A model generated the notes under the pieces. It saw only the letters and a list, made by a program, of their open reading frames with translations. It did not search any database and had not been told where the DNA came from. 64,000 nt of DNA from Escherichia phage VB-EcoM-WM. The position numbers were made by a program, and so were the translations under genes. The stretch lies in sequence record PQ014731.1, one strand, 5' to 3'. Below, piece after piece: positions 1,131 through 7,438 of the stretch (position 1 is the first letter of the stretch; every line of letters begins with the position of its first letter).

Positions 1131-2612
1131 TTATTTAGCGTACTCGATCAATTCTACAGTTTTCCCAAAGCTTGGGATATAATTTTTATTATACCCTTCG
1201 GTGAGAACCCATAAAGTATCGTACTTTTTCCACTTGTTGTCAACAGCCTTTTGTTCAAAGTTATGCTCAAAGTATAGGTCGGTCAGGACGATGACATCTT
1301 TTGCATTTGGTATGTTAGCGTCCAGATACTCGAACACGCAAGCGGCTGTTGTTCCCCATGTTGAGTGGACCTCATAGTTGATCATCTCGTCGATGTTCCC
1401 ACGAGTGTATACTTTAACCTCTCCAACCTCGGTTGACCAGCAGAACATCGTAACCTTGAACTCTTTATACAGATTGCACAACCCAGTGATTTCATTGAAC
1501 ATTTTCTTTAAAGTTCTTTGGGAGATCGATCCAGAAACGTCTAGAGCCACCACAATATCTATAGTGTTTTCCGGATTACGTCCAGGAACAACAACGTGCT
1601 GATTCTTGTTTATAGCCCCAACTTTTCGCATTGTGCTGGTCAAAGACCCAGATCGGCGACCGGGTTTTCTATAGGTTAGTTCAGCCTTTCGTTTAGACAG
1701 CATACGTTGTTTAATGATGTCTATATAATTGATTACAGGCTTGCCTCTGTTTTTGACAAGCTCGCGCACAGCCTCAGGGCAACTACCTCCGGAAGCCTGC
1801 ATTGCTGCTTCCAACATGTCACCAGAGTCCTGCATGGCTTGATCTTTATCAGATTGACTGATTACTGGTTGCGGCTGATCATACCCCATAGCCTTTCCAA
1901 GATCATCACTAGTGCCACCGTTTCCGCTCATGTGATCATCGGTTTGTCGTTTATCTCCTTGGGAGTTCTCACCTTTACCGTTCTTACTTTTACCGCTATT
2001 CTGATCTCTTTGTTTATCAAGAACTGCATAGACGTTCTCAGCAATCCATCCATGAAACTTCATGTCGCAGTAGCAACTGGCTAAGAAGCCAAAAGGCTTA
2101 CCTTTTACGAACTCAGTGCTTTTCCCCTTCGGGAAGAAAACACAAGGAGGCTTGCTAAAGTCAACCACAAGACCTGTGTTGATAACGTGATCACAAGCAA
2201 TATTGAACAGTTCCGGCTCAAAGCTTTTACCACGGACCAGATGATCACAGATAATATGCCCCACCTCATGTGACAGAAGGAAGGCCACCTCTTTCACAGA
2301 TTTTGGGGAATAGAAAACCTCAGCCATCTCAAACTGCTTGTCAGTCAGAGATGCTTTAAGAATGGTTTTACGCTCATCTGCCAACCCCATAATGAACTCA
2401 GGGCTGTAGTAGATGCGTTTATGGTCTGTTGCCATAGTGGAGCACCATGTGTGGTTTTCTACGAACTGCAACCCTGACAACAGTGTGCCATAAAACGGCA
2501 GCTTTTCAAGAAGGTACATGCGAGCGGCCTGCAGCATTCGCAAGGCATCATCTTTTTGTGCGGTAATGATTTCTGAACTTCTGCTATCCATTAAAACTCC
2601 AGAAGGGGCCAT
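1131..2612 (-). CDS. VWA-domain protein with zincin-like metallopeptidase motif
   Basis: HExxH (SHEVGHIICDH) in N-terminal half; MIDAS-like DxSxS (VVALDVSGSIS) in C-terminal half; 493 aa. Confidence 0.7.
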   Translation of the reverse strand: MAPSGVLMDSRSSEIITAQKDDALRMLQAARMYLLEKLPFYGTLLSGLQFVENHTWCSTMATDHKRIYYSPEFIMGLADERKTILKASLTDKQFEMAEVFYSPKSVKEVAFLLSHEVGHIICDHLVRGKSFEPELFNIACDHVINTGLVVDFSKPPCVFFPKGKSTEFVKGKPFGFLASCYCDMKFHGWIAENVYAVLDKQRDQNSGKSKNGKGENSQGDKRQTDDHMSGNGGTSDDLGKAMGYDQPQPVISQSDKDQAMQDSGDMLEAAMQASGGSCPEAVRELVKNRGKPVINYIDIIKQRMLSKRKAELTYRKPGRRSGSLTSTMRKVGAINKNQHVVVPGRNPENTIDIVVALDVSGSISQRTLKKMFNEITGLCNLYKEFKVTMFCWSTEVGEVKVYTRGNIDEMINYEVHSTWGTTAACVFEYLDANIPNAKDVIVLTDLYFEHNFEQKAVDNKWKKYDTLWVLTEGYNKNYIPSFGKTVELIEYAK

Positions 2613-2624
2613 TGGCCCCTGTCA

Positions 2625-3674
2625 TTATTTAACGTGCTTGAAAATACCAGCCAACTCGGTCATTGTCATGCGAGTGGTCTTCATAAGGTCTGTCATAGCC
2701 TTCTCCATGATTGGAGATACTACCATGAAGTTACCTTTGGTGAAACCTTTGTTCCAGTCGGTAACTAATAGTGGTTTAAGTCCGGCCCCAAGACGCTCAC
2801 CAGTTAAAGCACAACATTTTCGAATGTATGTGCTCTTAAACTGGCTGAAGGACAGATCAACTTTCATACCTGCATCGTAGAACGTCTGGCAATAGAAAGT
2901 GTAAGCTTTGGCAATCTCAACATCGTCAGGCAGTGCAGGAACCTCTTCTGTAAGCTCTTCTTCGACCCCTTGAGGCTCTTTTTCCTCTTCGTAAGCCTGT
3001 TGCGTCATCTCTTCAATCTCCTCTACTACAGGCTCGTTTACAATGTCAGAAATGTGCTTGTTGGCTCCACGATTAGCCATGAAGTTTTTAAAATCCTGCA
3101 TTGGTGACATATCTTCCTCCCATTCTTCGTCAAAGAGTGCTAGTTTATCCTCTTCCGTTCCATATTGCAAGATGAAATCTTCAAAAGTGTAATCACCTTT
3201 CAATTTCTCCATACGCTCTTCGCTCAGGTGGAGCATCATCTGCTGGACAATTTTTCGATCAGTTTTGTCTTTAATCAAGACTGCGGTCTTTTTATCTACC
3301 AGGCAGTCCTTTAGGGAGTTGCATCTCAATCCCACCACACAACAATTATCAACCGCATAAGGACCTTCATCATCTATCCGCTCCAGAGATGGGTAGAAAG
3401 GATTTCCCAGTCCGTTTTCATCTGTGTGCATGTCGAAAGGTATAAGGGTATAGTCGCATACTCCCTCTCCTAAAAGTTTTTTACCAAATAGGAGATATTC
3501 TTCCCATGACAGGTTGAACTCTATATCCCGTTTCCGTGCGTTATTCTGTTTGCGTCTGTATTTTTTGAGCAAGCGCTCTAACTCTTCTGGTGTATAATAT
3601 TTTTCAAGATTCATGAGTTGTCTCTTGTTCTCTGTGGGTGGAGAAATCTTACCAAGTGCCTGAGAAGATGTCAA
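2625..3674 (-). CDS. hypothetical protein with HNH-like RID motif (349 aa)
   Basis: SLERIDDEGPYAVDN motif resembling phage HNH-type proteins; acidic middle region; track start is TTG, alternative ATG at 3614. Confidence 0.5.
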   Translation of the reverse strand: MTSSQALGKISPPTENKRQLMNLEKYYTPEELERLLKKYRRKQNNARKRDIEFNLSWEEYLLFGKKLLGEGVCDYTLIPFDMHTDENGLGNPFYPSLERIDDEGPYAVDNCCVVGLRCNSLKDCLVDKKTAVLIKDKTDRKIVQQMMLHLSEERMEKLKGDYTFEDFILQYGTEEDKLALFDEEWEEDMSPMQDFKNFMANRGANKHISDIVNEPVVEEIEEMTQQAYEEEKEPQGVEEELTEEVPALPDDVEIAKAYTFYCQTFYDAGMKVDLSFSQFKSTYIRKCCALTGERLGAGLKPLLVTDWNKGFTKGNFMVVSPIMEKAMTDLMKTTRMTMTELAGIFKHVK

Positions 3675-3687
3675 CCTGAAAAACGTA

Positions 3688-5940: not shown

Positions 5941-5984
5941 TGGGTAGGGATGGCGGCAAGGATGCTGCTTAAGGAGCAGTAGAG

Positions 5985-6254
5985 ATGTTATACCAGCAGT
6001 ACGAACTTCGTGCAGAAAAAGAATTAAATTTTGACAAAGATATTCACAGATATTATTATGGGAAAGTTAGAGGGCAAGCAAGAAAGTGTACTCCAACACT
6101 CTTTCATGCCAGCAGACGACTAGCTCCAGAAGAGGCAACAGCAGAAAGGGTTGCATATGGCTGGAGAGTTGCGTATGATATTGACAGATCCGATGTGATG
6201 TCTGTTTTGGAAAACTTTGAAAACACTTACACACAAGTAGAGGACTTTTGCTAA
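5985..6254 (+). CDS. hypothetical protein (89 aa)
   Basis: RBS GGAG upstream. Confidence 0.45.
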   Translation: MLYQQYELRAEKELNFDKDIHRYYYGKVRGQARKCTPTLFHASRRLAPEEATAERVAYGWRVAYDIDRSDVMSVLENFENTYTQVEDFC

Positions 6255-7438
6255 TGTCAAGAAACGTATTCGAAAGTGGTCAAATCACTGTCCGCGAGTT
6301 GCCAGCTATTATTCAATTTGCCCAGCGTCATAACCGATCTGTCCTGATTTTAGGACCGATGGGTGTGGGGAAGAGCCAGGTGATGAAGCAGATTGCTGAT
6401 AATATGTTCGGTGAGCGAGATGACAACCTGGTTGACGTGCGGCTGTCAGATAAAGATCCTGCTGACTTGTCTGGACTACCTATCCCTGTAGAGGCAGATG
6501 GAACTACACGCACAGTGTTTGCAATTCCAGAATTTTGGCCTGCAGACTCGGACTGGAGCGGAATTATCTTTCTGGATGAGCTTACTCATGCAGATAACTA
6601 CCTGCAGAAGGTTGCAATGCAAATTATGCTCGACCACAAGTGCGGCACCTATGCATTTCCTAAGGGCTCTGTTTTTGTAGCTGCAGGTAACCGTGCTACA
6701 GATGGTGCTGTTCTTTCAGCGCTCGAAGCCCCTCTGGCTAACCGCTTTATCATTGTAGAAGTTACAAGCAGTGCAGAGGTATTTATTGAGGACTACGCAT
6801 TCCTTAATGGTGTGCACTCCTCTGTAATTGGATATCTGAAAAGAGTTCCATCAGCTATCGATAATTATGAGGCTATGGCTGAGATTAATTGTCCATCTTT
6901 TGCCACACCGCGATCTTGGGTTGCTGCATCTGACATCTTGCACGATTTTGACAGCGGTATTATTTCTGACGCTATGGCTCGTGTTCTTCTGCAAGGCGCT
7001 ATCGGTCACACTGCAGCGGTAGAAATCTGGACCTACCACACCAAGAAACGAAACTTGCCAGAAATCGGTCGGATTATGGCAGGGGGTTGCAAAGAATATG
7101 TAGGTCCTAAGCAGCCAGATATCTTGTGGATTCTTGGGTCTGAAGGTTGTATTGCTATTCGGAATATGATGGAAAATGCAAGTGTCTCAGACGAAGATCT
7201 TGTTAGCTGCGTGGCAAACTTCCTCGATTTCCTTTGGGAAAATTTCAAGGATGAGAACCGAGACTTTGTATTCTCAGTCTTTATGGCGATGATGAAACCC
7301 AACGCCCTAGGAAATGCCTTACTTATTGGTAAAGGCCGGGACAAGATCGTTGCTCAGCTGATCAAAGCATACCCGAACCTGATGAAGATTGTAAAAGAGT
7401 TTGGTGAAGAGTTTAGCGCCATTTTAGCTAAAGCTTGA
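6248..7438 (+). CDS. MoxR-like AAA+ ATPase
   Basis: Walker A LILGPMGVGKS, Walker B IIFLDELTHAD, downstream FVAAGNRATDG region; 396 aa. Confidence 0.75.
   Translation: MLMSRNVFESGQITVRELPAIIQFAQRHNRSVLILGPMGVGKSQVMKQIADNMFGERDDNLVDVRLSDKDPADLSGLPIPVEADGTTRTVFAIPEFWPADSDWSGIIFLDELTHADNYLQKVAMQIMLDHKCGTYAFPKGSVFVAAGNRATDGAVLSALEAPLANRFIIVEVTSSAEVFIEDYAFLNGVHSSVIGYLKRVPSAIDNYEAMAEINCPSFATPRSWVAASDILHDFDSGIISDAMARVLLQGAIGHTAAVEIWTYHTKKRNLPEIGRIMAGGCKEYVGPKQPDILWILGSEGCIAIRNMMENASVSDEDLVSCVANFLDFLWENFKDENRDFVFSVFMAMMKPNALGNALLIGKGRDKIVAQLIKAYPNLMKIVKEFGEEFSAILAKA

Follow-up and report, generated by a model that had tools for sequence, protein, structure and literature searches.

Pairs of a MoxR-type AAA+ ATPase and a protein with a von Willebrand factor A (VWA) domain are among the least understood AAA+ systems. 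In NorQ-NorD and CbbQ-CbbO, of the MoxR CGN subfamily, the partner of the ATPase is composed of an N-terminal specificity domain, a long linker, and a C-terminal VWA domain bearing a MIDAS (an adhesion site that depends on a metal ion), and the two genes are normally adjacent. A single NorD molecule is seated on the NorQ hexamer, with a VWA-domain finger inside the pore; the NorD MIDAS binds acidic residues of the target and not of the ATPase, and the linker of NorD is twisted and stretched as ATP is hydrolysed (PMC9976466, PMC13036017). RavA-ViaA, a chaperone-like modulator of host complexes, similarly consists of a MoxR AAA+ protein and a VWA cofactor encoded in one operon. [quoted passage not shown] Here, we compare with these systems a pair encoded by Escherichia phage VB-EcoM-WM, comprising a MoxR-class ATPase and a VWA protein with a zincin-like N-terminal domain, termed the adaptor. 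Both genes lie in a stretch of 64,000 nucleotides (sequence record PQ014731.1), the whole of which is referred to as the window.

The window is from a Vequintavirus, an rV5/FV3-like coliphage. The adaptor gene (1131..2591, minus strand) encodes 486 residues with the domains DUF2201_N and DUF2201, and the ATPase gene (6254..7438, plus strand) encodes 394 residues; the adaptor is the orthologue of N4 gp25 and of bas54_0055 from phage Bas54, and the ATPase that of N4 gp24 and bas54_0063. From start codon to start codon, the genes are 3,663 nt apart on opposite strands, with back-to-back sigma70-like sites between them, in agreement with an original prediction from the sequence that had placed them about 3.6 kb apart around a divergent promoter region. 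The comparisons presented here indicate that the two genes are probably the halves of one conserved MoxR AAA+/VWA-zincin cassette, which is split in this phage and serves as a counter-defence machine. Among MoxR/VWA systems, the pair is set apart by its peptidase-like fusion, its phage setting, its split layout, and a probable counter-defence role.

Phage N4 encodes the same two families (tblastn: ATPase, 27 % and 3e-27; adaptor, 22 % and 4e-19), and gp25 adopts the architecture of the window adaptor, with matches to DUF2201_N (3e-87) and DUF2201 (1e-46). In both phages, the pair is located in the early/middle region upstream of rIIA-rIIB-helicase. The main differences are that the N4 genes are adjacent and co-oriented with a 167-nt gap, whereas in the window 3.66 kb separate them and each lies on its own strand and in its own operon, and that the window proteins are longer (394 versus 352 residues for the ATPase, 486 versus 380 for the adaptor). 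The original N4 record annotates gp24 and gp25 as "similar to S. coel. protein 1" and "protein 2", and both are middle-class genes that belong to the 14 core genes of N4-like phages (PMC4193335). A common gene order, ATPase ... rIIA - rIIB - (helicase), is observed in a podovirus (N4, Schitoviridae) and in the window myovirus (6254-12941), which are of unrelated families, suggesting an old early/middle-gene module that is larger than the pair.

Linkage of the two families is observed across a wide range of genomes. Among 80 IMG/VR loci that were anchored on the ATPase only, a DUF2201 gene is directly downstream on the same strand in 68, with gaps of -58 to +322 nt; ten of the remaining 12 contigs end within ~215 nt, and an eleventh (L019) extends for ~1.1 kb downstream, too short for the gene. 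In a further 38 loci, whose ATPase identities range from 24 to 99 %, the adaptor gene is downstream on the same strand in all 18 loci at or below 35 % identity, 13 of them within 200 nt, and lies 3.4-5.1 kb upstream on the opposite strand, as in the window, in 19 of the 20 loci at or above 43 %. These split loci cover Vequintavirus, a group with 73 % identity, Seunavirus/4MG, Mydovirus, and Hena1-like phages. The adjacent, co-oriented pair is also seen in short metagenomic contigs, where the DUF2201 gene is 60-75 nt downstream of the ATPase gene, in environmental phage contigs with ~35 % identical ATPases, in jumbo phage genomes, and in an N4-like contig. Cronobacter phage PBES 02, a Certrevirus of the same subfamily, likewise has an adjacent pair, as does a 1.25-Mb bacterial contig; among informative bacterial loci, which are mostly from Campylobacterota, about 50 of 68 are adjacent. 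In Escherichia phage A5-4 (L093), an HNH homing endonuclease gene (7285-7779) is inserted precisely between the ATPase and VWA genes of a cassette that is intact in other respects, which makes this junction a target of mobile elements. Scanning with N4 gp24 by itself recovered no phage other than N4. The phage database has 812 records for one family and 688 for the other, distributed over host genera in almost the same way, and the identities of ATPase and adaptor to the window proteins correlate with r = 0.97 over 49 loci, which are not phylogenetically independent. The linkage of the two genes is well established by these counts. The original prediction had proposed a split ATPase-VWA module and had made its fate depend on co-occurrence in related phages; the families are found together in hundreds of phage genomes, adjacent in the distant relatives and split in the close ones, and they co-diverge while the genes around them change.

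Because the distant relatives, N4, Certrevirus, and the bacterial contig all have the adjacent form, this form is ancestral and that of the window is derived. Judging from the sequences, the split is a single derived rearrangement of one clade, composed of Vequintavirus, Seunavirus, Mydovirus, and Hena1-like phages, throughout which both genes have been retained as the ATPase diverged down to 43 % identity. In the common ancestor of this clade, the adaptor gene would have been moved and inverted across the divergent early promoter region to a site behind a gene resembling T4 Srd and endonuclease VII (EndoVII), and both genes would still be transcribed from one back-to-back sigma70 promoter node. 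The synteny of the flanks does not show a simple excision: the open reading frames (ORFs) that follow the cassette in locus L003 are unlike those that follow the window ATPase. In an all-ORF blastp comparison with Certrevirus, A5-4, L003, and L004, only the ATPase and VWA genes are shared with the window region, and the breakpoints are for this reason not reconstructible. The EndoVII-like N terminus of the neighbouring gene and the HNH gene in the A5-4 cassette invite the speculation that a homing endonuclease mediated the move of the adaptor gene, and a degenerate homing endonuclease is a conceivable origin of the rearrangement.

Similar to N4 gp24, which scores 20.4 bits against an AAA_5 cut-off of 22, the window ATPase stays below the Pfam cut-offs (AAA_5, 17.0 bits versus 22; bpMoxR, 15.7 versus 27). 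It has no AAA_3 match in Pfam and no NCBIfam family above threshold, and its PADLOC matches are weak and at the level of the P-loop (E 5e-4 or worse over ~40 residues). Because the Pfam matches are sub-threshold, a MoxR-like nature is not readable from the profiles alone. In a phmmer search, the ATPase joins ~360-residue proteins with PF07726, PF07728, and PF20030 at ~1e-43, with 35 % identity over 85 % of its length. Relatives at 31-35 % identity (the L009 and L135 proteins) exceed the Pfam thresholds that the window protein fails, which makes the latter a divergent branch tied in by transitive homology. The catalytic motifs comprise Walker A (GPMGVGKS, residues 34-41), Walker B (FLDE, 106-109), sensor 1 (N146), and, for the arginine finger and sensor 2, a PLANRF segment with R164 and a TPR segment with R220; all AAA+ catalytic motifs are invariant among 42 homologues. 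In Sulfurovum metagenome-assembled genomes (L135, 3396-5948; L153, 3500-6017), the ATPase passes Pfam AAA_3/AAA_5 and is preceded by a ~470-residue LRV/HEAT-repeat (DUF2336-like) protein, and an ArsB transporter gene adjoins.

The AlphaFold2 model of the ATPase has a mean predicted local distance difference test (pLDDT) score of 86. It predicts that residues 75-90 fold into a β-hairpin insert, after helix 2 and before the Walker B strand, and that short strands occupy 129-136, ahead of strand 4; these are candidates for the clade 7 insertions, a helix-2 insert and a pre-sensor-1 β-hairpin. With this model, ranks 1-18 of a Foldseek search of the PDB are all NorQ, NorQ-NorD complexes, or CbbQ (E 6e-8 to 6e-6; template-modelling score by target 0.59-0.69), which outrank Clp, MCM, RFC, and McrB. 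By sequence, a PDB search with the ATPase gives P-loop-level Clp matches only, and the family profile has midasin as the closest solved sequence (2.7e-13). Unlike the window system, midasin (Rea1/Mdn1) is a giant single-chain eukaryotic hexa-AAA protein of ribosome biogenesis that carries motor and MIDAS in one polypeptide. NorQ and CbbQ share ~17 % sequence identity with the window ATPase, which has an extra helical C-terminal domain of ~120 residues (~271-394). RavA, which differs in having LARA and triple-helix domains and in binding LdcI, is outside the top fold matches. From the phmmer link, the invariant AAA+ motifs, and the NorQ/CbbQ fold matches, we place the protein in the MoxR/AAA_5 assemblage, as a divergent branch to which a C-terminal helical domain has been added, and the label "MoxR-like" that had been given to it holds.

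The adaptor is more readily classified. DUF2201_N (PF13203; 1.3e-28, 100.9 bits versus a cut-off of 23.2) precedes the VWA-like DUF2201 (PF09967; 2.8e-11, 44.1 bits versus 26.4), both above the gathering score. In the N-terminal domain, the HExxH motif (HEVGH; H108, E109, H112) lies inside model helix 99-114; H117 and D134 are conserved, and D134, on model helix 126-144, is a candidate third metal ligand. A low-confidence linker at ~200-228 and a conserved basic segment, YRKPGRRS, at ~306-313 are followed by the C-terminal DUF2201 VWA domain (~340-486), which contains a complete MIDAS (D351-x-S353-x-S355...T414...D438). The VWA protein with HExxH of the original prediction is thus present, and its motifs are conserved: across 179 diverse adaptors, HExxH is found in 174, D134 in 179, and the full MIDAS in 175. 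Motifs so constrained argue, on the strength of the alignment, for a working metal site in both domains. An exhaustive profile search, which gave the family size (a word-indexed profile search for VWA homologues added few), retrieved 30,103 cluster representatives, 10,397 of them at E <= 1e-30, and nearly all are full-length two-domain proteins of 380-450 residues. Neither a PDB sequence search nor PADLOC gave a match for the VWA protein. The window adaptor resembles NorD and CbbO in its arrangement of specificity domain, linker, and C-terminal VWA domain, but its N-terminal domain is zincin-like with HExxH where NorD and CbbO have N-domains of their own, and ViaA has no HExxH domain. The ATV pair is also different, being composed of virion-associated proteins of an archaeal virus with a proposed role in extracellular tail growth and no zincin domain, and it has no detectable close sequence relation to the window pair.

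Public annotation of the adaptor is inconsistent. PHROG phrog_1314 and many RefSeq records, including that of N4 gp25 (L094, 3165-4307), label it "HNH endonuclease", which appears to be a propagated mis-annotation since Pfam gives DUF2201_N and DUF2201 and no HNH domain; other records name it "anti-sigma factor". The literature on DUF2201 is sparse, and no functional study was found. The window region is 93-97.5 % identical in DNA to 121 deposited Vequintavirus genomes (rV5, FV3, and the BASEL phages Bas48-Bas5x), whose records carry the labels [quoted passage not shown], "anti-sigma factor", and "MoxR ATPase", so that the two proteins are not new at the level of annotation. These annotations and the role of the ATPase against the defence system DS-28 are already public. 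The link between the genes, the history of the split, and the phenotype of the adaptor gene in transposon sequencing (Tn-seq) were not found discussed in the literature searched.

Functional data are available for the Bas54 orthologues, which are 99 % (ATPase, bas54_0063) and 98 % (adaptor, bas54_0055) identical to the window proteins and are encoded in the same layout. A HIDEN-SEQ preprint of 2025 describes saturated transposon libraries of Bas54/MaxBurger, and reports that deletion of bas54_0063 or of bas54_0140, which encodes 99 residues, renders Bas54 specifically sensitive to DS-28, a two-gene system predicted by DefenseFinder in the uropathogenic strain CFE311 and cloned into K-12 (bioRxiv 10.1101/2025.11.20.689424). 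The main text treats the ATPase and bas54_0140 and does not mention bas54_0055, and the strain list has no bas54_0055 knockout (bioRxiv 10.1101/2025.11.20.689424). In the supplementary resampling table comparing K-12 with CFE311, mean counts fall from 148.7 to 0.0 for bas54_0063 (log2 fold change -7.23, q = 0) and from 219.7 to 47.2 for bas54_0055 (log2 fold change -2.20, p = 0.0009, q = 0.009). The neighbours bas54_0054, 0056, 0057, 0062, and 0064 are unaffected on CFE311 (-0.08 for 0056), and no CFE311 phenotype is seen for the reported orthologues of the intervening genes, bas54_0057-0062. On K-12, both bas54_0055 and bas54_0063 are non-essential, with a saturation of 0.94 (bioRxiv 10.1101/2025.11.20.689424). 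Polarity is an unlikely cause of the bas54_0055 signal, because insertions in the upstream operon gene bas54_0056 have no effect. The Bas54 Tn-seq data thus give independent but modest support to a host-dependent role in phage growth that both genes share. The statement of the original prediction that no function could be assigned is in part outdated by this host-specific fitness role.

The window also encodes the bas54_0140 orthologue (44888..45187, minus strand; 99 residues, 91 % identical). Unlike the widespread ATPase/VWA pair, this family (phrog_12072) is confined to the genus Vequintavirus (117 records), and its shared phenotype makes the protein a candidate lineage-specific cofactor or specificity factor. 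A literature search gave no biochemical identity for DS-28. That the pair is itself a defence system was considered and rejected on the basis of its virulent-phage context, the lack of a meaningful PADLOC match, and its pro-phage phenotype. The targets of NorQD and CbbQO, cNOR and Rubisco, are absent from the phage, and the role observed in the phage is host-dependent fitness and not enzyme maturation.

By analogy with NorQ-NorD and CbbQ-CbbO, a sequence of events can be drawn in which physical interaction, proteolysis, and the identity of the target are inferred. The ATPase hexamer would grip the VWA domain of one adaptor, or the basic segment that precedes this domain, while the adaptor MIDAS would bind an acidic residue of the target protein. 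ATP hydrolysis would then pull or twist the ~140-residue linker region between the VWA and N-terminal domains, such that the target would be remodelled and handed over to be cleaved at the HExxH site, or the HExxH site would be unlatched. Since the pair is dispensable on K-12 and promotes growth on the strain with DS-28, the most likely target would be a host defence component (DS-28), with the 99-residue protein as a possible specificity factor. A broader version, which we regard as possible but tentative, is that the gp24/gp25-type cassette is a general ATP-driven counter-defence protease of virulent phages to which small lineage-specific proteins lend specificity. In that case, the MoxR-class hexamer with its VWA-MIDAS adaptor would capture immune proteins of the host and deliver them to the zincin domain fused to this adaptor.

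Several observations weigh against a counter-defence machine built from these two partners. One IMG/VR locus (L055) and one lineage in the set at or above 43 % identity (L101) are true exceptions that have no nearby VWA gene, and 16 bacterial loci of the Sulfurovum type have none within ~5 kb, with the LRV/HEAT-repeat protein upstream of the ATPase in its stead. This protein may be an alternative adaptor for the same motor, and the three cases indicate that the ATPase is able to act with partners of other kinds. Because the loci cluster phylogenetically, with the IMG/VR sample dominated by few clades, the counts overstate the number of independent events. Fold searches with the adaptor gave matches to VWA domains only and none to its N-terminal domain. 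Similarity to a peptidase is confined to the HExxH helix, which matches M48/BepA without reaching significance, so that the term "peptidase" stands on the conserved motif and the label in Pfam. No obvious NorD-like β finger is seen in the VWA model, which is compact. The experimental data stem from one preprint, in which bas54_0055 is one of 27 significant genes among 227 on CFE311 and its depletion was measured on the whole clinical strain, whereas the knockouts assayed on DS-28 are those of the ATPase and bas54_0140. The Tn-seq effect of the VWA gene is ~30-fold weaker than that of the ATPase gene, and if the two were obligate 1:1 partners, like those of NorQD, their phenotypes should be equal. 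Finally, the presence of the pair in the core of N4-like phages suggests a role broader than one rare plasmid-borne system.

Some of these points would be accommodated if the same cassette had a housekeeping role, as a chaperone or maturation machine for a middle-phase phage or host complex, with the CFE311/DS-28 phenotype being indirect. Metal or cofactor insertion, assembly of replication or nucleotide-metabolism enzymes, and virion or tail maturation as proposed for ATV p618/p892 are examples. The characterised MoxR/VWA pairs (NorQD, CbbQO, and RavA-ViaA) are all maturation chaperones, and the place of gp24/gp25 among only 14 N4-like core genes, in the middle class, fits such a role, as do the frequent location of the cassette amid genes for thymidylate synthase, 5'-3' exonuclease, dCTP deaminase, helicase, and DNA polymerase and its occurrence on bacterial chromosomes. 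An essential developmental role is, however, hard to reconcile with saturating insertion on K-12 at no fitness cost (saturation 0.94); the phenotype of the ATPase deletion was reproduced with cloned two-gene DS-28 in K-12, and the conserved HExxH points to hydrolysis over pure chaperoning. We consider a housekeeping role unlikely.

The unequal phenotypes could also mean that the genes became uncoupled after the split, the ATPase acting against DS-28 with a bas54_0140-type protein or alone and the adaptor acting independently, perhaps with its Srd-like neighbour. The preprint names only the ATPase and bas54_0140 as anti-DS-28 genes, the effect of the VWA gene is much weaker (-2.2 versus -7.2), the two genes are now in separate transcription units, some bacterial ATPases of the family have a non-VWA neighbour, and the VWA gene is welded to the Srd/EndoVII-like gene in all split lineages. 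Yet 19 of the 20 loci of the split clade keep both genes, at ATPase identities as low as 43 %, the two proteins still co-diverge, and the MIDAS and HExxH of the adaptor are intact; on the host where the ATPase gene is depleted, significant depletion is also seen for the VWA gene but not for its Srd-like neighbour, and the silence of the preprint is that of a strain list with no VWA knockout for the DS-28 assay. Uncoupling is accordingly judged improbable. A third view, that a generic P-loop/AAA ATPase and an unrelated VWA protein are chance neighbours within 4 kb, could appeal to the failure of the ATPase to enter any Pfam or NCBIfam family above threshold, to the lack of a meaningful PADLOC match, and to flanking genes that are not syntenic with those of adjacent-pair phages. 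It is contradicted by linkage, co-divergence, fold, and phenotype, and the linkage counts (68/80 and the 38 loci) together with the NorQ/CbbQ fold effectively refute it. One machine made of ATPase and adaptor and directed against host defence is the reading that we prefer.

The three ORFs named in the original prediction all exist in the window, but their starts had been taken from maximal ORFs and better ones are available. For the VWA gene, this is ATG 2591, with GGAG 5 nt upstream, in agreement with the deposited records; the alternative ATG at 2612 sits in the loop of a GC-rich 7-bp hairpin (AGGGGCC-AAT-GGCCCCT; 2604..2620, minus strand), and the GGAG ribosome-binding site comes after this hairpin. 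For the upstream gene, that of the "RID-motif" protein in the original prediction, it is ATG 3614, as TTG 3674 falls within the -35 box of the leftward promoter-like site, and for the ATPase gene ATG 6254, which the 89-residue ORF ahead overlaps by 1 nt. The hairpin takes up part of the 33 nt that separate the VWA gene from the gene upstream of it and is possibly, by its sequence, an attenuator or an RNA-stability element. Co-transcription of the two genes, as had been proposed, is plausible, with the reservation that the hairpin stands between them.

The leftward operon begins with the Srd/EndoVII-like gene (2625..3614, minus strand; 329 residues), labelled "anti-sigma factor", and has the adaptor gene as its second member, behind the hairpin. 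A TG-extended, sigma70-like promoter (TTGACA-17-TAAGAT; 3646..3674, minus strand) lies ~30 nt upstream of ATG 3614, and 14 nt from its -35 box is the rightward sigma70-like promoter (TTGACT-17-TATAGT; 3688..3716, plus strand), which heads an operon ending with ATPase, rIIA, and rIIB. The ATPase gene is the eighth gene of this rightward operon and is followed by a 126-residue ORF, a cell-wall hydrolase gene, rIIA, and rIIB. In 8/10 split-lineage loci, down to 38 % protein identity, a leftward TTGACA-type site lies about as far from the Srd-like gene; the rightward promoter is kept in Vequintavirus and the 73 % group and not clearly beyond. Co-expression of adaptor and ATPase from one early promoter node is plausible, and early sigma70-type promoters fit an early counter-defence role.

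The 329-residue protein matches PHROG 3118, 3322, 1035, 4592, and 1400, with an N-terminal region like endonuclease VII/HNH-type proteins and T4 Srd, and has no Pfam match. Every split lineage has a homologue of it immediately ahead of the VWA gene, and phages whose cassette is adjacent lack one in this region; the gene marks the rearrangement and is a neighbour in the operon, outside the ancestral module. Between the promoters and the ATPase gene are six genes (3757..6254, plus strand) of 299, 92, 118, 85, 126, and 89 residues with no detectable domain. None recurs in Certrevirus, A5-4, or N4, and they are lineage-specific filler. The names given to two of them look unsupported: "putative alpha 1-3 fucosyltransferase" (3757-4656, plus strand; 299 residues) has no Pfam, NCBIfam, or PADLOC support, and the 89-residue ORF named "ATPase" (5985-6254, plus strand; phrog_13164) has no match in Pfam, NCBIfam, or PADLOC.

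Three further observations concern other parts of the window and its relatives. At 41700-44300, ~2.5 kb are devoid of a convincing ORF, tRNA, or Rfam match, the sign of the GC skew flips, and short repeats such as ATAGTTGCC(C/T)TG are scattered in both orientations (42092-42370), making this stretch a candidate, from its sequence features, for a replication origin or regulatory hub. In a 73 %-identity relative (L133, 1-1557, minus strand), the helicase downstream of rIIB contains Hint/intein and LAGLIDADG domains, an intein insertion that is not listed in the Bas54 annotation. The 16-18 GenBank "Campylobacter phage" records (MG0656xx, host Campylobacter jejuni) are ~93 % identical over the region of the pair to E. 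coli rV5-like phages, and their host assignment looks doubtful.

The zincin-fused branch of MoxR/VWA systems is very large, with ~30,000 sequence clusters from many bacteria and from phages of the N4-like, rV5-like, and jumbo types and no characterised member, and gp24 and gp25 have been listed as N4-like core genes of unknown function for more than 10 years. The split form, the co-retention and co-evolution of the two genes, and the Tn-seq phenotypes on the same host make the function of gp24/gp25-type genes directly testable in Bas54 and K-12 with DS-28. If the machine degrades or remodels defence proteins, it would constitute a new mechanistic class of anti-defence, of relevance to the choice and engineering of therapeutic phages. 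Should the cassette be a general counter-defence protease, this would explain why a seemingly dispensable pair is core in Schitoviridae, Vequintavirinae, and several jumbo-phage groups, and would be the first virus-side role of MoxR/VWA systems in virus-host conflict.

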